The notes beneath the pieces were generated by a model, which saw only the letters and a list, made by a program, of their open reading frames with translations, did not search any database and was not told where the DNA came from. A stretch of DNA of 64,000 nt from Chara braunii (taxonomy: Eukaryota; Plantae; Charophyceae), in assembly GCA_003427395.1 (NCBI GenBank), contig BFEA01000010.1, positions 6,078,144 through 6,142,143 on the forward strand, in the 5' to 3' direction. Below are positions 15,343 through 53,062 of this stretch, in pieces. The position numbers and the translations under genes are program-made. How positions within the stretch are numbered: the first letter of the stretch is position 1; the number at the start of each line of letters is the position of its first letter.

Positions 15343-16700
15343 CAAATTCCATTGCACGATCATGACTGATGGATGGACCAACATTCGATGTCAAACATTG
15401 TGGAACTACCTCGTCGGAACCACGAGGGGGGCCAAATATGTTGCCACAAATTCCGTTGCACGATCATGACTCACGAATGGACCAACATTCCGTGTCAAAC
15501 ATTGTGGAACTACCTCGTAGGAACCACGACGGGCGCCAAATATGTCGCCACAAATGTTATGAGAGGGAAGAAGGATGCCAATGCTCTAGCGCAGGCTCGA
15601 CGGAAAAGGTTGAAGTCCCTTGACATTAAGCTCGCAGATATTACAACTTTCGTCACACACTCGGCTTGCTCGATCTTCTGCCGCACGTCATGGACCACAT
15701 CCTTGAGGACATTGTCGACATTGACTGGGTGGGGACGCATATTGCTCAGGCGCAGTTGGTCACGAAGTTTTTCAATCGCCATAGTCATGCTCGCAAGGTT
15801 TTGCAGGAGTTCACGTTGATGGCACTATTGCTTTCTGTTGAGACTCGCTTTGGCACGCATGTCATTGTGATGAGACGACTTCCGTTACTGCAAACGAAAC
15901 TTATGCAGGTGGTCATTGATGATCGATATAAGGACACTGTCTGGTCAACGAAGAAGATTTGAGATGATGCCGCGGAGGTTACAGCATGTGTCGGGTCTCC
16001 TCTATGGTGGGAAGATATGAGAGCGGTGTGCAAGTTGTTGGATCACATCATGAACATGTTGTAGATGGTGGACAATGACACGAAGCAGATAGGTGACATT
16101 TGCGTCGGTATGATAAGATGACCATATCTTGTTTAAATGTCTGTGTTGGTTTTAATCGGGAGGAGCAAGATGTGGGGCTTGAGGTGTTTGACAGACGTCG
16201 AACCATGTTCAAGTCACTGGCTCATGCAGCTGCCATGATGTTGGATCTTGAGTTTTGAAAACCCTACACTGCGCAGGGGTTGATTGCTGCTTTGGTTCAG
16301 TTCGGCTACCGTGAGAGCTCAAACCAGCACAAGGAGGTCGTCACAACCATCCACAAGTTTCATGCTAGGGAGCCACCATTGCACAACATGGCCATGGATC
16401 GGGCGGCACGGAGCCATAGCCATCCAGCCAGTTTCTGGGAGTCTAAGCAAAAGAGATTCCCGCATACGGCCCTCGTCGTCGGCAGGATCCGTCGTATGTG
16501 GGCGACGGCATCACCTTGCGAGAGAGCTTGGTCCCACTGTAGCTTCATCCACTCCAAATCTCATAACAACTTGGAGGTTGCACAGGCCGAGAAGCTCATG
16601 TGATGCCACTCGAACATTCGGCTTCTTGACAGACCCCCGATCTCGAACAATGCTCCCAATGTCAGGCCTCGTTCGTACGAGAGTTGGGTGCACTACTCGC
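15343..16700 (+). pseudogene. hAT-family (DUF659-type) transposase remnant with C-terminal dimerisation domain
   Basis: TIMTDGWTN...LWNYLV, SVETRFGT, ATASPCERAWSHCSFIHSKSHNNL motifs. 104-bp tandem duplication at 15343-15446 / 15447-15550. Stops and frameshifts. Confidence 0.85.
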
Positions 16701-19700
16701 AACATTTGGAGGACTTGCCCACCAACCAGCAGCTTGTCTCAGGCCAAGGTTCCCATGCGACGATGACACGAGAGAGAGGATGTGCGTTGTTTCCCGCATG
16801 AGAGCCATGCGTCGATTGCGGGAGTTGGACAGGAGGAGGCGTGCTAACAGCAATCGCAAGGCGGTCGTCAGGGAGGTTGTGGACGAGGCGGGTGTAGAGG
16901 AGTTGGCGGCAGGATGTCTATCGCGAGTCGTCGACTGTCGGTGGATCACCTTGTACGCAAACTTCAACAACGCTGGGAGGTCTACCGCGAGTCGTCGACT
17001 GTCGGTGGATGACCTTGTACGCAAGCCTCAACAACGCTGGGACGAGGGAAGACGTCTTGTATGAGAGCTCGTCCAGCGACGATGAGGATTTCTTCGGAAA
17101 TGGCACGCCTGCAACGGGCGTTGACAATGATCCTGACGACCGCCACCCGAATGGAGACAACGACGATGGTGCAAGAGGCGACGATTGCTGTGATGGAGGA
17201 GATTGGTTGTGGCGATGCTCGACACGTGGAGATGGGGACAGAGTGGGTGACAACGATGGAGCAGGGGCGATGGTCATGATGCCGGTGACGCTAGTGCAGG
17301 GACAGGTGCAGCGGGCTCGACACGTGGAGATGGAAACATAGCGGGCGACAACGATGGTGCAAGGCGGCTCGATCATGATGACGGTGACATCAGTGCAGGG
17401 ACAGGTGCACGGGGCTCGACACGTGGAGATGGAGACCATGGCATCGACTACCGCTTACCCTCGAATGACAATGGAGATGGAGGGGACAGCGACAGTCCAA
17501 GACTTCTTCTGAGGACTCTTTCAGCGACGACGCCCATGAGAAGCGGATCGGCACCGATGATGGGAGCGGTCTTGCACAAAATGACACCGGGAGTATGCAC
17601 CGGGACTCTTTCTGAGGACTCTTTCAGCGACGACGCCCGCGAGAGGGGAGCAGACCACAGATGCCGCCTCCTCGACTCATGGGAGACAGTGCATATGATG
17701 TGGTACTACAGGAACAAGGTAGCAATCCAGTACCACATCCACTCGCATCAGCAGTCAGATAGGACGCAGCTGCAGTGAGGTGAGACACAAGAGGACCATC
17801 GGTAGTAGAGGAGCAAGACAATATGCCCCCACCTCGAAGCACGATTGACGTGGGGGAAGGGATTGTGACCCGTTCTTGCAGCACACATGGATTTCAGCCC
17901 GACGTCGTCAACGGAAGGGTTGCTATGCAGCGTTTAGAGACAGAGAGAGCAGATGCAAATGGCAGCGCACCGCCTACATTGATTGAGGAGAATGTTATCG
18001 CGTGTCTAACTGTTGCTCACCCGGAAGGGGAGGTTTCATACACTCCCGCACCTTAGGAGAGCGCCGACGGCCATACCGAGCTCGCATGCCCCACGGGCAA
18101 TCTTTCGGGTGATAGCGAGTTATTGGCCATGGACTCGGCACTCATCTCTCTCCCAGACTTGTCCACTTTGATATCTCCCAATTTACCCCAGATGTCATCG
18201 CCTCACCTACATCAGCATGTTCGCACAGAGCAAGGTGGTGATGCCTTTAACGAGTTGATGGCGATGCGATACTCCATCCAAAAGTGTCCACCACACCCAC
18301 TGTTTTCCGTGTGGGCATACCACGCAAGGTGAACCTTGGTAAGGCTAAGACGGCAACACGACAATGTCCCAATGGTCCCCGCAGCACTGTACAGCGCAGT
18401 CTATCCGATTTGTTTGATGGACTGCCTCCATGCGGTGGCGGGGAGGAGGGTGGCTTTGTGGCATGAGGCGCAGTTGACGGAGCAGCAGGCCCTCCAGGTC
18501 CGTCGTCACATTCAGAGCAAAAGTCCGCCAACGCAGCCGGTGGGGTGGACAGCGGTGATCAGCTGCAGCAGCGTTTGGCAGGTTCGTCAACATAACATGC
18601 TCATCACGACGACCCCCATAGACGGTTATCGAGCGCCCCACACACATTTCATGGGCAGCGGCAGCTCCTAGAAGGGTCAGCGATGGCACATCGTCGCGTA
18701 GACGCCCCCCTACTACCCTGCGACATGCAATCACAAGCGTCACCGCCACGAACACTGCTAAGGCCACATAGCAGCCTATAGTGGGGTCATCGGCGACAGC
18801 ACCTCGTGTCGACGATCCTCGCAGTTGTGCTTGTTCTGTGACTGCTGTATTGCCGATGGTATTCTATAACCGCAGGACCATAGATGGGGGGTTCGGTGAG
18901 CAAGGAGTTGGAAGTGATTGTAGGCCATCAGTACCGTCTATGGGGACACGATCCATCGAGATTGTTGGTGGTGCTCGCGACAACGCCATGAGAGAGTACA
19001 AGGACCGACATGGGAGTACTTTGCCGACAAATACATCGGATGTCGCTTTCACAAGGGTCGTGAAGGCGAGTCTTTCTTGGGCGGGGAAGAAGGACGCGGC
19101 AAGGAGATCGTCACCACATATGCATCCTCATCCGAGGCTTTCCTGCCCTGCACATCTGGAGGATGGAGAGATTGCACCAGAGAGAGGTGCATTGGATGAT
19201 GGAGGGAGGACTGTAGGAGGAATAGGAGGCACGATTCAGAGATCGGATCGTGTGCATCAGGCTGGCATAGTTGCTGCGATGGACGACCGCTGTCAGAGGG
19301 CGCGGTGTCCCGGCCCTCTGTGCGTCAGGCTCCTGTTTGGTACCAGCACCTTGCTCGGACGCCTGTGGCTCATCGGGCTGCTCCCAAACCTCCGTGACTC
19401 TTCTGGAAAATCCGAATAGTCCCCCGCTATGGGTCGGTTGAGACAGTGATTGCACCCAACAAAAGGGTGCGCCACTAGGCTTTCCATTGGTCCACACAGG
19501 CTCGGCGCCCTGCTGTACAACAAAGCACTACCAGCCTGTGGCCGTGGTAGCCGCTGGGCTCGCCTAGGGACGCGGATGTAAATAGACCGGCGCAGTCTTT
19601 TCTATTGCGCGCCGATCGCTCCCTGGTCAGGTTGGTGGTCGCTGTCAGAGAAAGAGAGGTTAAGCAAAAAAGTACAAGAAAAGTGAAAAGAAAACTAAAG

Positions 19701-20338
19701 GTCTAATCTGCACGACTGAACTGCGTACCTTAGTTTGGGGAAATCTGACGACCTTTGGTTACTTTGTCGTAACATTTTCGTTCTTTTCTTTATTATTATT
19801 ATTATTATTACTAGTATTTTTGAACTCTTAGACGCGGCTCTCTTTTGATTGTAGTCACTTCGCGGGAAGGGCCGTCAACGGTTCGAATTCGAACCTGAAT
19901 AATCTGATGGCCTAGACTGTCAGACCCTACGTTTCCCATTACTGTAAGTCTAGTCCGCGGGTCGCAATCAGCGCAAAACCCCAAAATAGGGGCAGCCAGG
20001 CCGCTTCGATAGGAAGCTCATCACCCCCTGTGGGAGGTCATGAACCCCCTCCTTGCCATCGGACGTGGGTACTCGGTAGGGCCGGTAGTGATAACTCGAG
20101 GGCTTCTTTTGAGGAGAAAATCTGATGGTTGGTGTCCCGTTATGGGACCACCAGGCTGAATCGCAAGGGTTAGAGAGCGATGGTAACGCTGCGGGGCTCT
20201 GCTCGTGTCCTGACCTTTGAGCTTCGTTTTTCCTATGTTCTAAATTATTTAACTTTTTTTTATTTTTATCAATTTTCGAACTCCAAACCATTACCTGAGT
20301 TCTCATTAGTGCACGGGAATCTCGGCATGTCTATGCTC

Positions 20339-20346
20339 TATAAAAG
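20339..20346 (+). promoter_or_regulatory. TATA box candidate upstream of orphan ORF1
   Basis: TATAAAAG about 200 bp before ATG 20546. Confidence 0.4.
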
Positions 20347-20545
20347 CGAGGTTGTTCTCAAGTCCCCCTACAAATATGTGGAGTGCACATCATTGCTAGT
20401 AGATGCCAAATGCGCCCTTCACTCTGAGAGCCGGAACTCTGCTCGCGGCTAATTGCTTGATAGTACTACCAGCAGCATAAGTCTTTCAGAGCGCTACTTT
20501 GGGCGGTCGGCCTAACGTTGTGCAGGACCTGTCAATAGTGCGGCT

Positions 20546-21022
20546 ATGGCGCGTAGCAATGGCCTTTTTGGCTATAGGTCAGGCCATCCAAGATTCTACT
20601 GGAGCTGGGAACCGATGCGCGAAGAAAGGGCTACCGTAGACGCCTGCCTAAGCTGTAGTAAAAGTGACGGCTTAGCAAGACTGAAGATAAACATTTACGG
20701 AGGGAAGGAGCAGGAGATGAGGGAGGATGCAAAGGTTCAGGGTGTAATTACGGAGGCTCATGACCGAGCCGAGCGGAGGTTCAGAAGGGACGGAGTGACT
20801 ACGAGCTTAAAGGTAACGGTTACTTACCATGAAGAGAAGACCTCCACGAGCACGACCGAGACAGAACAGGAGGAGCTGGACCAGGACTCTGAAGCAGAGT
20901 CCGAGGCCAGCGACGCACAAACCAGGTCATTCCACGGACTGGAGCAATGGCGAAGAGAGTACCCGCCAACGGAATCGGTAGAGGATGGGCCTGAGGCTAG
21001 TTCTGCCCAGCGGAGGGACTGA
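20546..21022 (+). CDS. Orphan ORF1 (158 aa, acidic C-terminal half), possibly extending to 21796 as a pseudogene
   Basis: ATG start and protein-like composition. The same frame continues through 9 stops (7 TGA) to TAA 21794-96 and includes ORF 21266-21559. Confidence 0.5.
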   Translation: MARSNGLFGYRSGHPRFYWSWEPMREERATVDACLSCSKSDGLARLKINIYGGKEQEMREDAKVQGVITEAHDRAERRFRRDGVTTSLKVTVTYHEEKTSTSTTETEQEELDQDSEAESEASDAQTRSFHGLEQWRREYPPTESVEDGPEASSAQRRD

Positions 21023-24000
21023 GATTAAGGGAGAAAAGGGCCTATCTGCATTGGGGCGGGCCGGTTGTTGCTGATGTTAGTCTCAAACGAATCATGGGGG
21101 TGACGTGTACATACTCAACTGATGGGAAAAACAGGGGTAACAGCCCCTGGGCCGCGATGCAGAAGCAGAGAAGGACGCAGGTGACTGTAGGCCAGTACGC
21201 GCAGTAGGGACGAGACGGACGACAAGCACGAGAGAGAGACTAGACCGTGGGAGAGGCAAGCGAATGTGTATGCTTGGGATGCTGGCATCAACTTGACTTC
21301 AGTGCGCAACAAGACAGAGAGAGTGGATGCACATGAGGACCAAGTCGAGAGAATCTCTACCTCAACGTTCTCGGACGAGCAGGCAAGAGAGAGGTTTTGG
21401 CATGCTCACTATGCAAGGCTCATGTGCAGGGGTATGATAACCGTCACGTGTACGTGGAGAGGGCCAATGGATAATGAGGGCAAGACAGAAAAGCGATACA
21501 GTTACGAGAGAGATGCGCGAGACAGTCAAGAGAGAGAGAGTGAGGACAAGCAGGGTTGATGAGCCCGTGAAGGCCGTCTCACGACAACATCATGAATGAG
21601 GCAATACGAGTGGCAATCAAGAGAGGAAGAGAAGGAGAGACGACCAGAAAATGTCGGGCGCGGTTGATATGGGTTTTACCGTGTGAGCAAGACGATGGGT
21701 TGGGTCAGCACGAGCGTCACTTATGGTCCGTATGTGGTCAGATTGACAGTGCCTTCCCAAGAGCATGACACGGGAACGAGAATAGTAGCCTTGTAAGTGT
21801 TATGCAAAGAGAGCGCAAATTGCAAGCTCGGAAGACGAGATTGACAAAGGGGAGGATTTGTTTAAAAAGGGGTTGATGTCACCACATTTGCTTGCTGCTG
21901 GCACTTGCCAATCTGGTTTCATCACAACGAGTGACAACACGCGACCAGACCCGTGACAACGTCTTGTGGCTAAAAAATGTCATTTAGCGACAGGCTTGAG
22001 AGTGCTTCCTTTTCCCAGACTCTGGATTTCAGTCAGCACCTGCACATCCGTGAGTAGACCTGTGAACCTAGCGACTGTAACATAGTCATTTAACTTTCTT
22101 TACAGCAGGGACTGAGAGTGATGTGAAATCTTGTTTTCTTCAATCAAATTAAGTAAGTTGTGGACTCCGTTGGTGTTAACTGCTGCTTCGAGGCATTCTC
22201 GTATGAGACTCGTTGTTAGAGAAACGAGTTGACCTTGCACAAATTTAGTTCAACAGAAGAGATTTGGGCTTAAGCATGTGAGTAATTACTGGACCTTATG
22301 ACGAGATTTTGGGAGAAAGGAAGCTAATCTGGGTGTGAACATGATGCGAGGATACACCTGATAATGTGTGACCATAGTAATGAATATTTTGCTTTGGATA
22401 AACCTATTTAGTTACCTTTCCTGCCACTGCTGCAGATCATTGTAATAGCTAGAGGTGTGGACGTTTGACGATGTATTGAGAGTGAACGGCTTATTTGAGG
22501 GACAAGCCACACCTAAATCGAGTCGAAAACTGATCTACATGACCCTTAAGTGGTTGCTGTCAGTCCGTAATCAGTGCAGATCGTGACGCCCTTACCTACT
22601 CTCATTGAGTTGTGTGGTGTACCGTGACCTTCAAGGACCAACACGATGATAATTAGCGGTAGAACTGATTATCAGCAACCCTAGATTATTCTGGGCTGCG
22701 TACCGTGCGGTTACTTTCACCCTTCTTGTGACGAGGGGAGCAACAAGTAAAAAGAGGGTCGAAACAACGTTCTTAATTGTCTTGCAATCGAGATATTTCC
22801 ATTTGGTCGTGATTGATGGTAAGGGGCGTGTGTGGTGAGGTCAGACTTTCCATGACAGAAGGGTAGAGTAAGTTTATGTTTGATGTCATCAAAACACTGA
22901 CGGGAAGTTCGCTGTTTATTATCCCTTGGTTGTTGCCCTCTGTTATCCAAGTGTTTTTGCCAGCTCAAGCGATGTGATTTCGCGGGCAGTATGTAAAAGA
23001 GGAAAACGAGAGGGATGATGACGCGGGTCTTAACGGGCTGAGCGTCGGACTATAGGGCGTGAACTAGGAGAGACATCCTGTTCTGTTCTGTGCAGAAGTC
23101 GTGATCTTCGCCCTTGAAAGTTCATACGAGCATGAGGTCTGATGCGCCCACGTGTACACATACGTTCGTGCGAAAACACTATCATGCAGGCTCGCAGGGC
23201 AGGCAACTGGTCGTATGGGCCTGTTGGTGCTTATGTGGCTGCATGATCTAGTCTGTAAGCCCCTGTATGAGTGTGAACGCACGCTCTATCTAACTGGCGA
23301 AGCAGTCACCCTATCACTCCGGTTAAATTTAGACGAGTGATCATTTTCAGTTCTCTCTAAGTACCGGGTCTGAGTGATGAAGAAAAAAGTTAAGAAAAAT
23401 CTCTTATTTAATTGCCAAGTTTTTACTTGATGGTGATTAGTACTAGCTGTGATTAGCGTTCATAACGTTAACAAGGATCGACACCGGAGGGCGGGGGTAA
23501 GTCGAAAGGAGGAATTTACCTGAGCATCGCCTGCCCTTACTTTTGATATTGAGCAACCTCAAAGTCTGGTGATGCCCATGCAGAGGCTGTGATGTTTTCT
23601 CTCAACTATATCCACAGGCGCCTTAGCGACCTAGGAGCCTTTTAAGAAACCAGATTGGACCGAGTTGAAGGGTGACTTCGTGAGTACATTGGATCTACCC
23701 GTAATTGTAATCGAACTTTTGGATAAAGTATGGAGCTCTTTCGTCAAAACGAAATCTAAAGATATGATTAATCCTACCAGTCTGCACAGAGAATACCCTA
23801 TCACTCAAGACCGGAGGCAGTCATGACTGTTGGCCACCCCCATTGGGCACTGCCTGACAATACACACATACCCTTGTGCTCGGAATGGTCAGATGGACTT
23901 AGAACTGGAACTATGAAAGTTGGTTCGGCGCGCAGGTAGTTAGCAGCCAAAACCACTGCAGCACACTCAAAAATAGCTTAGCCACTTTATGTTCGAATTG

Positions 24001-24706
24001 TAACCGGACTGCCAATACTCTGAACTCTCACTGGGCATACTGGTTACGGCTACTTAGCGATTGAGCAGTGCCTCATCACGAGTCATTTCCCTGGGGAGTA
24101 CGGTCCGATCGCAGCCAGTGGACCATACTGAGTCTGTGTTGCAGTCTGGTATAATTTCAAAAACCAACCAGCCGAGAAGAATCAAGAGCAGGCTACATTC
24201 AAAACCTCAGCACAGATACTAATCTAAAGACCAACTGTTGGTCAGGCATCAAAAGGAAACCGTGAAGTTGGCATTACTCAGATTCAACTACCATATTTGG
24301 GACAGATAAGGCCTGCAGTTAATATACCAACCTGTCACCCTCACGGGTAAAAACTCGACAAGCCCAGGCGGTGAATGGTCATCTATGAGATTTAGGTGCT
24401 CCGAAGTGTGAACTCGACACTCACTCACCAACTCTACTCATGAGTGCAAACCAAACAGTTAAGAACAAGCGTTTTTATTGAGCCCTGAAAGCCATTTTCG
24501 TGAGTCTGTTCTGATCGAACTACTACCTGTCAGACGATCAGAGCAGTTTCCATACTAATACAGAAACAGGGGGATGATTCTTGCAGGCTGGTGCTAATGA
24601 TCTCGTAGCAGAATGAACTTCTAAGGGTAAATTCAATATCAATCCTTGACTGAAAGGACAAACGAAGCACTTTGATCGACTCTAGCGACTTAGACCATTA
24701 GGAACC

Positions 24707-24958
24707 ATGAAAGGTAGTGAGGTGCTAGTTGTAAAGTGCAGTTCTGTTAGAGACAAGAAGGAAGGATGGAAAGAGGAGGCATGTCGGGACATGGACTTTC
24801 ATAAGCAGGTTCTGCGAGAGCATGCAGTTCGGATAATCAGGGAAGAAAGATACACTGAATACGTGTTTTACTTATGTGGTCGTGACGGTAAGCTGCACAG
24901 CATAGGCTCATTCCTAGAAACGGTGGAACAGGCCAAGGCAAGGTTCTGGTCAATATAG
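24707..24958 (+). CDS. Orphan ORF (83 aa)
   Basis: ACCATGA start context and globular-looking composition. No family recognised. Confidence 0.4.
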   Translation: MKGSEVLVVKCSSVRDKKEGWKEEACRDMDFHKQVLREHAVRIIREERYTEYVFYLCGRDGKLHSIGSFLETVEQAKARFWSI

Positions 24959-25194
24959 GAAACGCCCAGGCTGTCCAGTTATGGCTTCCGCTAGTATCTA
25001 CACTAAAGAAATCTTTTTTTTTTTGCAATCTACAACCCTTCCAAGTGAACTGTATTTGGTGACTCGGTCTTGATCAGAGTTTAATCGGCACGCAACTATC
25101 AACCTTCAATCAATAGTCCTGCAACCTTCAGTTCTGGCCAATACTCGAACGTTGTCAACTAGCACGAGGGTCAGCACTAATCAAACAGAGCCCT

Positions 25195-25204
25195 TATAAA
25201 AAGG
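25195..25204 (+). promoter_or_regulatory. TATA box candidate upstream of orphan ORF
   Basis: TATAAAAAGG about 125 bp before ATG 25323. Confidence 0.45.
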
Positions 25205-25322
25205 CAAGTCAATTTCAGTACCCATTTCAGCCACATGAGCACGATTTAGTGATTACCAGTTAGTGAATCAGTTTTGACCAGGCTCAACAAGATTGCCACC
25301 AAAGAAGCCTTCCAGTATCGAT

Positions 25323-25907
25323 ATGTCAGTGCAGTGGGTTTACGACGAGACCTGTCAGTCTTTTGTCGTCCTCACTGAGTTTACAGGAGGCGCCATTCAC
25401 GACCTGAGACCTTATATAATGAGGGGCAAGGAGACCCATGAGCATTTCGATTCAGTTTGGATCACGGCAGCCAGGCACCTTGAGGAAAGAGAGGAGTTTG
25501 ATGAGAAAGGTACCAAGCTGATCCGTAGCTTTGGACCTAAGCTCTACACTGGCTATCCCAAACCTCTGGTACCTTTCACTCTTATAGACGACTCTTGTTG
25601 GGGTGACTTGGTGGATCTAGCCAAGAGGTACATTTCTCCTGCAGTGATCGACTACGAGGTAGTGATCGAGCCTTCTGGGTTTCCGCATCTCAGGCGAGGG
25701 ATTTTCTCACTTCTCACGGCCACACCTTCCAACTCTATGGGAGGAGTTTTGTGCTATGGTTGATTTTCGTATCATGGGACTTGGATGGAAGTGCTCAGGA
25801 CTAGCAGGTTTCAGGTGGCTCTACATACAGAGACCACAGTCTCAAAGAGTACACAGACATGGCCGAAAGCCCAAGTGGCAGACAGCAAAATGAGAGATCG
25901 AGTGTGA
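25323..25907 (+). pseudogene. Orphan ORF (146 aa to TGA 25761; 194 codons if that TGA is a nonsense mutation)
   Basis: MSVQWVYDETCQSF...GVLCYG*FSYHGTWMEVLRT...RDRV*. Single in-frame TGA. Confidence 0.5.
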
Positions 25908-26719
25908 GAATCCAGAGGGATGAGTGAGGGCTCAAGACTGGTGCTGCCCATGCTCTTTTCCATGTGTACTTTCTGAGACAATTATGAACTCTCATTCTTC
26001 TCTCACTTAAACTTGTCATTGCTCGAGTCAGTCGGTCTTGTTTCTCGCATTGTCGTTGTTGATGATTGCATTTCTCTGATGATTATGTCACGGTTCTCAA
26101 AATTAGTAAACTGGCAAAATTGATGAATGCATGACACACCACAATTTTATGATTATTACTTGCAAGAATCTTTGCTGTTCTGAATCAAAAAAAAAGATTA
26201 AGCCGGACGCACACAACAGGAGGGGATTTGCTCTATTTAGTTTATCTTATTTATTGCAAACGACATCCTAACCCTGCGTGACAGCCTGTTGGCCTTCTGG
26301 TCGCCTGAAGAGGCCCGACTGGAAAGAGTGTGACACCGCGTCGGCAGGGAGGGGCAGGGGCCGCAGTGCCAGGTGAGAAGAGATGCAGCAGTGTACTTAT
26401 CGTCCACGATGACAGCACCGATGTCGCCCCCGAAGAGACTGCAGGCACAGATGATCTGGGGGACTCGGATTACATACCGACATTGCGGGGGGCAGGCGGA
26501 GATGATGGAAGGGGGCAACAGGTCAGACGGAGGACCTGACGTGGGAAAAATGGGCAGGGCACACCATCGGCCAGGATACCACCCATTACAGAAACTATTG
26601 TGCACACTAGAGGCACAAACTCGGGCCAAATGGGCAGAGGGCACACCGTCGGCCAGGATACCACCCATTGATCGACGAGCTCAAGCGCAGCAGCTACTGT
26701 GCACACTAGAGGCCCAATG

Positions 26720-32103: not shown

Positions 32104-32623
32104 TGTGGCATACTCAGCTCCCCACGGGCCCAGCAGGGCCCAACCAGGTAGGCTAGGGGTCCGTATGGTAGGGTCTGTGTCGTTTCGACCCTCAGTAGGG
32201 TCCGCAGGGTCAGTAGGTCGGTTTTGGGCTAGAGTAGGACCGGCACCAGTTGAGAGGCCCTGCAGGCCTCGTTTTGGTTACAGGCCCTGGCATGCGTTTT
32301 GGCGCCAAGGCCCTGACTTTGAGGCCGCGCCGTTTCGGTAGGCGCTGGAGGCCCAGCCTCAGTTTGGGCGCCAGGACTCAGCACTGAGGCCGACCCAGCG
32401 CTATCTATAGCTGGGTCCAGCCTCAGTTCGGGCATTCAGTAGAGGATCGAGGTGAGGCATACTTCCGACAACAGCGGTGCAGCAGTAGCCAACGCTGGGC
32501 GCTGATAGAGTAGAGTAGCGCAAGGAGGGGGAGATGGTGATTGCTGCGTGACCATTGCTCCAGCTTCGTCTTCAGCACGTCCGCACCTGCATCAAGGCAC
32601 CACCTTTCGCAGGTCAGTACCTG

Positions 32624-32716
<93 letters not shown>

Positions 32717-33082
32717 CTTGTTCTTCTTCCTCCAGTCCACCACCTTCTTCTTCCCCTCCCAGCGCTTCGCTTCTTATCTGGCTATGAGAGAGAGAGAGAG
32801 GGAGGGAGGGAGGGATTGACGACGCTTGGGATCCGGACTCGAGGCTACTGGGATTGATATCAGCGACATTCAGGTTGCCAACATTCTCATCTCTTCCCCC
32901 TTCTCCTTCCTCTCTTCCCCCTCCTCATCATCTGTGTATGAGTTAGGCCTGGCACCTTCGTCCTGTGTGCGGAGCCAGGCTGTGAGATATCAGCGACATT
33001 CGGGTTGACGACATTCTCATCTCTTCCCCCTTCTCCTTCCTCGATTCTTGGTTCTGGTCTGTACCATCTTTGGTATGCGACA
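32104..33082 (+). repeat. 5' LTR of element B
   Basis: TGTGGCATACT...TATGCGACA, homologous to 48644-49275. Confidence 0.85.
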
Positions 33083-51569: not shown

Positions 51570-52886
51570 ATAATTCTGTTCAGCTGGGCAAAGACAGCTT
51601 GCCACCCAAAGGAAAAAAAAAATCACTACTGTGATGACCCGTCCAAACATGGACTGAAACACACGACTGATTTCTGAGTTTTGCCCATAGACTGAATGCC
51701 TTGCTGAGTTTCCCACCTGCTACTAAGTCTGTGTCTGCACGCTTGCTGGACTGCATATCTGTCTGAGTGCTGATTGGCTTAAGTGTGTGTGTGGTCGTGC
51801 CTGTCTGAGTGCTGGTTGGCTTGAGTGCCTGTGTGGCCCGCAAGGGCACTTGCTCGTCCATTGGGCCCTCAGGGCCGGTACTTACCTGTGGCCGAGACAT
51901 TGAGGGATTGCAGCAGGAAAAACACCAGAGTAGCGGGTAGGCCGGTACCACACCCTGAAGAGGTAGATGTGCGGGTACTGGAGGCCGAGCAGAAGAAGAC
52001 AAAAGTGGCATTTTTAGAGGCCCAGTAATTGTAGGTTAGGGCTAGGCGGATGCCAGTCCAACCAGTCTGGGTCTAGGGCCTGTACGGGCAATATCAGAAT
52101 CTGCAATGATGTTTCCCTCCGAAAGGGAGGAGGTACCAGTTGCTTGGGAGGCCGAGCGGCCTGGAAGTCACAGCCCAAAGAGGCAAGCAGGCCACTATAT
52201 CTTCCAGCCGGGCGAAGAGCCCGGCCTCTTTCTCGGTGTGCAAGTTTGGTGACACACTGGTTGGAGCGCCGGTTGGAGCAGCGCTATCCAGGAGCAGCGC
52301 TGCTGGGGGAAGGAGAAGGACACGGAGGAGGAAGGACAGGAAGGGGGAGGAGCACCAGGGGTACTTACCTGGCTATGGTGGCAGCCATCTTCATCACCTT
52401 GGTGGGCGCTGCAGCAGGGAGTCCCCAACTGGGGAGAGCCACACCAAGAAGCTTCAAGGCAGAGTTGGGCATAGCGGCCCGAGTGAAGCAGCCATAGTTG
52501 CTTTGGGTTGTCCTTTGGGCATCTGGGCAAGGCCTAGTAGTCCGCCATAGCCTCGGCCTATGATGAGGAAGGGAGGAGGAGGAGGCCATGGCTATGGCGG
52601 ACCTCAGGTGGTGCCGGCAGTGGAAGAGGAACTCGGACATTGATTCTGGATCAGCCATTCAACATTGTATTATTATTTCTTGTATGAATAAGAGAAGGGG
52701 GAGATAAGGAGGAGAAGATTGTTGGGCGAAGAAGAAGAGCCTGGTCATTTGTCTATGCTGGTGTACACCATCTTCTTCTTCTTCTAATCCTCTCTCTCCT
52801 CTCAAGTTCATTCATTTCTTTCTGCAATTGGGAGGCATTGTACTATCTGATGGATGTGTATCTCGAAATTGGCAAGGATGATAACA
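51570..52886 (+). mobile_element. Intact solo LTR of family A
   Basis: TGTGATGACC...GATAACA with TSD CTAC on both sides. Confidence 0.92.
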
Positions 52887-53062
52887 CTACTGCTATAGAG
52901 CTCGTATAGGCTCGCCATGCTCAGAGAATGCCACAGCGACACCCGCACAAAGAACCAGGACCACCCAATCACAACAAACATATACATCAATCATGACGTA
53001 AATAATGACGATTACGGAGCACTCTTGCTATAACTGTCCCTATCGCCTTGCTCCTTGACCGA

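Follow-up and report, generated by a model that had tools for sequence, protein, structure and literature searches.

A 7-kb insertion in Chara braunii is likely a solo long terminal repeat of a Ty3/Gypsy family that carries several small genes

A window of 64,000 nucleotides from the genome of the green alga Chara braunii (contig BFEA01000010.1 of assembly GCA_003427395.1, positions 6,078,144 to 6,142,143; coordinates below are those of the window) contains an insertion of 7,045 bp at 19291..26335 on the plus strand. This insertion is likely to be a solo long terminal repeat (LTR) of a tRNA-Asp-primed Ty3/Gypsy family, with at least three conserved small genes acting as trans helpers. That its whole length represents one gene-carrying 7-kb LTR, typical of a replicating subfamily, we consider quite probable. 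The element is of a known kind and does not found a new class; its size and the several genes within a 7-kb LTR are the new part.

The element begins with TGTCA (19291-19295) and ends with TGACA (26331-26335), and CCGC stands on either side of it (19287..19290 and 26336..26339, both plus strand) as a 4-bp target-site duplication (TSD), just as the original prediction, made from the letters alone, had described. The window holds 301 configurations of 5-bp inverted ends with a 4-bp duplication, which are common by chance, so the motif alone proves nothing and the empty site was sought. In contigs from related host copies (85% likeness), a joint from 19218 to 26363 was present in four of four DNA runs and another from 19213 to 26363 in two of the four, and one contig of run X3 spelled the empty-site junction with a single CCGC. 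These contigs differ from the host in several letters and derive from other loci than 19291..26335, and the four runs, among which may be the source of the assembly, represent at most two samples of one study. The summed contig depth also rises sharply at both ends of the element. Because host contigs join across it and the depth jumps at both ends, 19291..26335 is a real insertion with a TSD. The predicted rejoining of hAT-like host sequence was thereby recovered, including an uninterrupted copy with a lone CCGC. The termini vary among relatives, which mostly carry TGTCG...CGACA, and 19295 is changed from A to G in 10 of 12 reads of run X6.

The host is a dead hAT element, and the LTR sits in its downstream tail. 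Translations reveal a decayed hAT transposase at 15630..16600 (plus strand), in which the hAT dimerisation domain PF05699 is recognised at 16259-16600 (E 1e-4, 22.3 bits versus a cut-off of 21.4), 2.7 kb upstream of the insertion and on the same strand. No Pfam match was obtained in the immediate flanks of the insertion.

The identity of the right end was addressed with raw RNA-seq reads placed on the element (runs X5, X6 and X7). In run X6, 13 reads had loose letters extending past 26335, and from the sixth place their majority sequence is GGCGCCGTTGCCGGGGA. The tRNA-Asp primer-binding site (PBS) of FIDEL, an element of the Athila group, is tggcgccgttgccggggat (PMC2844528, Table 1). The two agree in 17 of the first 18 letters, the first letter being A and not T, a match with a chance probability of ∼3e-6 after allowing for 60 tRNAs, 10 offsets and 72 rows. 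At the corresponding position, a blurred GGCGC core is visible in the DNA contigs that terminate in the variant end GTGCGACA (24-26 contigs, two of four runs, agreement 0.5). Coverage of run X6 is even between the strands, and the run may contain DNA, which is irrelevant for adjacency. Since a tRNA-Asp PBS adjoins the same end in related copies, after ∼4 nt, 26335 is assigned from those copies as the 3′ end of the LTR, that is, what would be the end of U5. The spacer between LTR and PBS is given as 3-6 bp in ATHILA (bioRxiv 10.64898/2026.03.20.713144).

Nothing else expected of a complete element was found between the two TSD copies. None of the 51 frames scanned, out of 52 stop-to-stop frames of at least 55 aa overlapping the element, reached a Pfam cut-off, and tblastn with 14 Gypsy, hAT and Ulp1 queries returned only short matches scattered without order over both strands (the best, of 23 aa, at E 0.005). 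The absence of reverse transcriptase (RT), integrase or transposase motifs, which had been noted before, therefore held in both searches, and so did the absence of a long internal repeat. Compared with each other in either orientation, the left and right ends score no better than shuffled sequence, with no direct repeat and an inverted repeat of only 5 bp, and the window contains no second copy of the element. Rfam and tRNA scans gave no match, and no PBS-like site was found inside the element at three mismatches. An integrated LTR element starts and ends with an LTR. With TG...CA ends, a 4-bp TSD that is single at the empty site, a PBS behind the 3′ end in other copies, and neither PBS, gag-pol nor a second LTR (no direct repeat) from one TSD to the other, the insertion is most simply read as a single solo LTR. 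Of the two interpretations originally offered, a giant gene-carrying solo LTR is thus favoured by the tRNA-Asp PBS of relatives and by the conserved open reading frames (ORFs) described below, and the same PBS speaks against a virus-like cassette or new element class. In viral_contigs, the 11 loci retrieved with the end-plus-PBS pattern bear no similarity to the element, and DNA motif and profile scans of that collection yielded no match.

Several ORFs without a known family lie on the same strand, in keeping with what the sequence had first suggested. ORF A (20546..21022, plus strand) is open, encodes 158 aa with an acidic C-terminal half and, in pairwise comparisons, is 54% identical to the C. 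braunii gene model CBR_g23759 and 44% identical over 153 aa to the N terminus of CBR_g30998. An atlas look-up with an ORF A homologue produced no lead (best feature score 0.78, TM ≤0.34). ORF C (24707..24958, plus strand), an open frame of 83 aa, matches positions 2649-2857 of contig BFBZ01006156.1 (L001) with both of its halves (0 and 5 of 1,000 shuffles were as good); its single-sequence structure model is poor (pLDDT 53). Between them, ORF B (21191..21559, plus strand) is a 122-codon open frame and a candidate only, which reached no Pfam cut-off and has no match in L001. A common origin of ORFs A to D as paralogues was rejected, the best pair (B and C) being equalled by 18 of 500 shuffles.

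Gene D (25237 to approximately 25893, plus strand), of ∼215 codons, is broken in this copy by early stops and by frame changes near 25360 and 25710; its start is the ATG at 25237, as judged from the gene model CBR_g4049. The model CBR_g30998 contains A and then D (44% and 64%, respectively), and L001 carries D at 69% DNA identity with the ORF C match 400 bp upstream. By these comparisons of sequence, diverged relatives have kept ORFs A, C and D with order and strand unchanged (A with D, C with D). Pieces of RT occur downstream of D in CBR_g30998 and CBR_g4049, and may be spliced in from neighbours. Over the 120 codons compared with L001, pN is 0.27 and pS 0.61, giving a ratio of non-synonymous to synonymous divergence (dN/dS) of 0.27, whereas neutral simulations with the observed transition bias gave 0.69 ± 0.22, with 3/300 and 1/300 as low as D. 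Gene D is thus judged, from codon comparison, to have diverged under purifying selection.

A search of 1.84 billion protein representatives with gene D gave four matches: two Chara models, a 131-aa protein from short ENA contigs with 29% identity, and a chance match. The 29% identical relatives are encoded on two such contigs (P0005 and P0006), so the gene D family reaches past close copies; the fourth match, P0004, with SprB repeats, was set aside as fortuitous. A protein search restricted to near-length candidates recovered none of six, and a profile search of longer proteins found only the two Chara models already known. For a relative of D, the N-terminal 122 aa were modelled with AlphaFold (five sequences; pLDDT 71, pTM 0.64) as a helix, three strands and a helix. 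By its topology this may be a double-stranded-RNA-binding or PC4-like fold, for which fold searches gave no support: Foldseek found no match at E 0.001, and the best VIA result (Z 5.3, rmsd 3.1, 85 aligned) is below the meaningful level. No protein family was found for the ORFs of the element in Pfam, and no fold for A or D in structure searches. Reads over the middle of D run mostly in one direction (3.85 versus 0 and 1.75 versus 0.16; runs X5 and X7), which, given the usual stranded library, indicates sense transcripts. The element copy itself is nearly silent and its gene D is dead.

TATAAAA occurs twice in the element, both times on the plus strand. One (20339..20345) is a putative promoter 207 nt before ORF A, and the other (25195..25201) lies 42 nt upstream of the gene D start codon. 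The first kilobase had also been described as dense in hairpins. This was upheld for the first 350 nt (folding z −1.8 on the plus and −3.2 on the minus strand) and the density is weak beyond them, since 19870-20200 has z −0.9 and the six perfect stems of the first kilobase, versus 2.8 expected, are reached by 10 of 100 shuffles; an excess of hairpins across the whole kilobase is therefore unsupported.

The copy pattern of the family was estimated from summed contig depth divided by that of difference-free flank contigs, a measure that gives orders of magnitude and no copy number. The left end (bin 19285-19581) stands at ∼1,500-1,900 times single-copy depth, and depth and folding delimit a moderately structured terminal block at 19291..19640 (plus strand) common to the whole family. 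A second family-wide conserved, non-coding block follows at 19879..20175 (plus strand; 185-420 times). At the other side, 25522-26412 reaches 200-1,640 times, and depth together with the PBS defines a conserved right block at 25520..26335 (plus strand) that includes the 3′ half of gene D, a U-rich tract and the 3′ end of the LTR. The interior at 21600..24700, with no strand assigned and no recognisable ORF, is specific to a subfamily: from 21661 to 24630 the depth is mostly 2-7 times single-copy (5-12 times in one bin) and related contigs are ∼10% diverged. Local peaks mark ORF A (25-58 times), ORF C (12-22 times) and the start of gene D (30-53 times). The element thus belongs to a very large Chara repeat family with conserved ends, and its middle is common to few copies at 85% likeness.

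Rearranged relatives were also seen. A joint from 25768 back to 22383 (runs X2 and X3, two of four) suggests a 3.4-kb internal duplication or rearrangement, and such a duplication is a possible way for these LTRs to grow. Another joint, from 20065 to 19297 (run X3, one of four), places an LTR start within another copy of the same LTR family. Subfamily breakpoints are visible in the left end, where many relatives share the first 28 bases, diverge, rejoin at ∼19465 and leave again at 20072.

A number of observations weigh against reading the insertion as a 7-kb solo LTR with selected genes. The PBS is supported by 13 reads from one run with an agreement of 0.54 and a misread first letter, no PBS row appears in X5 or X7 among the rows listed, most X6 reads derive from relatives (532 of 580 are <95% alike), and their link to the PBS covers no more than the final tens of bases of the 7 kb. 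No loose-end row that would reveal a polypurine tract is present at 19291 among the rows listed, nor was a paired full-length copy seen. The interior depth, ∼100-fold below that of the ends, would also fit a family with a much shorter usual LTR. The dN/dS of D comes from one pair of decayed copies, and expression is very low (29 reads each in X5 and X7, nearly all from relatives). In L001, the 3 kb upstream of D contain no match to ORFs A or B or to the left end and no TATA motif, and they hold instead a 244-codon Ulp1/C48 SUMO-protease frame (L001:420-1151; PF02902, E 9e-25) on the same strand as C and D. Finally, if the main promoter of the LTR were the TATA at 25195, as it could be, D would lie in R/U5. 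The Ulp1 frame lies 1.5 kb upstream of the C and D relatives with short repeats between, and may belong to a related LTR as cargo or to a DNA transposon next to it.

The low interior depth leads to the alternative that best survives, though we regard it as improbable: a solo LTR whose normal family form would be ∼2 kb long (19291-20175 plus 25225-26335, with D), the middle 5 kb being captured or nested sequence in a minor and perhaps non-replicating subfamily. Besides the ∼100-fold drop in depth, the rearranged relatives (25768 to 22383) and the nested starts (20065 to 19297) speak for it. Yet no inner TSD-bounded element or transposable-element domain was recognised, and relatives whose proteins have diverged by 30-55% still combine D with A or C, which argues for long joint travel; furthermore, none of the 15 joints listed, out of 156, skips the middle.

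A far weaker case can be made for a non-autonomous virus-like cassette or Ginger-type DNA element with ends of its own, moved in trans by a Gypsy-type integrase, which we consider very unlikely. The TGT ends, the 4-bp TSD and the several orphan genes with no enzyme would suit it, as would the Ulp1 protease ORF near the C and D relatives, Ulp1 proteases being cargo of some DNA elements. It is opposed by the tRNA PBS behind the right end in related copies and by the inverted repeat of 5 bp only, whereas the terminal inverted repeats of Ginger-type transposons run to tens or hundreds of bases. Assignment to the Ginger type as such was rejected on these terminal repeats, the inverted alignment of the ends being at shuffle level. 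So was a large retrotransposon derivative (LARD) or terminal-repeat retrotransposon in miniature (TRIM), as no direct terminal repeats surround an internal part. Least credible of all is a doubly deleted full-length element, in which the left part of a 5′ LTR and the right part of a 3′ LTR would flank an internal piece with accessory ORFs; such a history requires two deletions that took away the inner LTR halves, PBS, polypurine tract and all of gag-pol, gene D reaches into the block that includes the LTR end, and the interior is present in several near-identical copies.

For the preferred reading, that of a gene-carrying 7-kb solo LTR, we propose the following course. An integrase would have inserted a full-length element into the dead hAT element with a 4-bp stagger, leaving the TSD observed. 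Recombination between LTRs is an established source of solo LTRs, and here it would have removed gag-pol and one LTR, so that one LTR remained between the TSDs. The conserved ends would enclose a modular, fast-changing middle, most likely U3. The small genes appear to be kept under selection during replication of the family, as indicated by dN/dS for D and by conservation for A and C. They would be expressed from TATA promoters of their own, as the sag gene of mouse mammary tumour virus (MMTV) is from the LTR, and every LTR, solo ones included, would thereby work as a small expression cassette. By this analogy the modules most likely lie in U3 with their own promoters, D possibly in R/U5. The small proteins, free of enzyme motifs, would act against silencing by the host or raise transcription of the element; this role is the best guess that analogy allows, though we give it less than even odds. 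More tentative, and on balance unlikely, is the full picture in which the Chara Gypsy LTR is a modular multi-gene cassette of up to at least 7 kb, a size record, with exchangeable, self-promoted accessory genes (perhaps including Ulp1 in one relative), and in which solo-LTR formation, the usual route by which the host deletes retrotransposons, spares these genes, so that hundreds of functional counter-silencing cassettes remain and assist the family in trans.

Among known systems, the closest in size is Ogre, with LTRs of 1.9-6.5 kb (PMC6431247), likewise a Gypsy group of green plants with giant LTRs and with extra ORFs of no known function. The Chara LTR, at 7.0 kb, is above that cited range, its PBS is of the Asp and not the Arg type, and its TSD is 4 bp versus 5 bp in Ogre (PMC6317226, Additional file 5), so that the Chara element departs from the tRNA-Arg PBS and 5-bp TSD by which Ogre is recognised; moreover, the extra ORFs of Ogre are described as internal, whereas those of Chara are inside the LTR. 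A tRNA-Asp PBS is reported in 72% of Athila and 37% of TatII elements, both of them non-chromoviruses, and TatII has a 4-bp TSD in 49% and 5′ sense extra ORFs in 23% of its elements (PMC6317226). Athila shares the tRNA-Asp PBS, but its TSD is 5 bp in 95% of cases versus 4 bp here (PMC6317226), and its LTRs are put at ∼1-2 kb (bioRxiv 10.64898/2026.03.20.713144). The 4-bp NCGN target of Phygy fits CCGC (one site, ∼1/16 by chance), but Phygy uses a tRNA-Trp PBS (81%) and not Asp (PMC6317226). The Asp/Asn PBS with a 4- or 5-bp TSD that characterises TatII is found in the Chara element, which suggests, from these two features and polyprotein aside, that TatII is the best fit. Chromodomain-type Gypsy elements of the window also make 4-bp TSDs, so the TSD would fit them as well.

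Accessory genes within LTRs have precedents outside plants. MMTV sag and nef of human immunodeficiency virus (HIV) are ORFs located in U3 of retroviral LTRs (PMC12789967), and, as in Chara, a whole accessory gene lies in the LTR and is retained by every LTR copy. The Chara LTR differs in being 7 kb long and algal and in carrying at least three unrelated small genes, for which no relation to sag or nef in sequence or fold was found. In the fungal element crapaud of Podospora, subfamilies are set by a variable part of the LTR, as here, and the abstract of that report mentions no coding cargo (PMC10787394). A plant-wide survey worked with an LTR length limit of 6,000 bp and reported LTRs of up to ∼5 kb (PMC6317226), LTRs of >3 kb have been called uncommon (PMC3485330), and descriptions of plant elements place their extra ORFs in the internal region (PMC7264820; PMC11963269). 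We found no account of the Chara LTR family in full-text searches of the literature, although supplements or repeat libraries of the Chara genome may list it.

A 7-kb LTR family would be missed or mis-annotated under the length limits of surveys, and the Chara genome is both rich in repeats and a key outgroup to land plants. LTRs are commonly taken as non-coding. Several selected orphan genes in one LTR would extend the layout of MMTV sag to a gene cluster, and the ORFs are concrete candidates for counter-defence proteins of retrotransposons. A repeat of 7 kb also raises the question of how strand transfer copes with it.

Other LTRs of the window are much shorter. A 1.26-kb solo LTR with the 4-bp TSD CTAC lies at 51630-52887, and a 1-kb LTR at 32104-33082 is followed by a Met-type PBS; both are ordinary-sized LTR families of this genome. 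Near the host transposase, a 104-bp tandem duplication on the minus strand (15343-15555) contains GCGACA, which resembles an LTR end, and the PBS-like TGGCGCCCGTCGTGG, which we take to be of the tRNA-Lys type. This duplication precedes a chromodomain-type Gypsy element whose 5′ LTR is missing, with the hAT remnant in its place.

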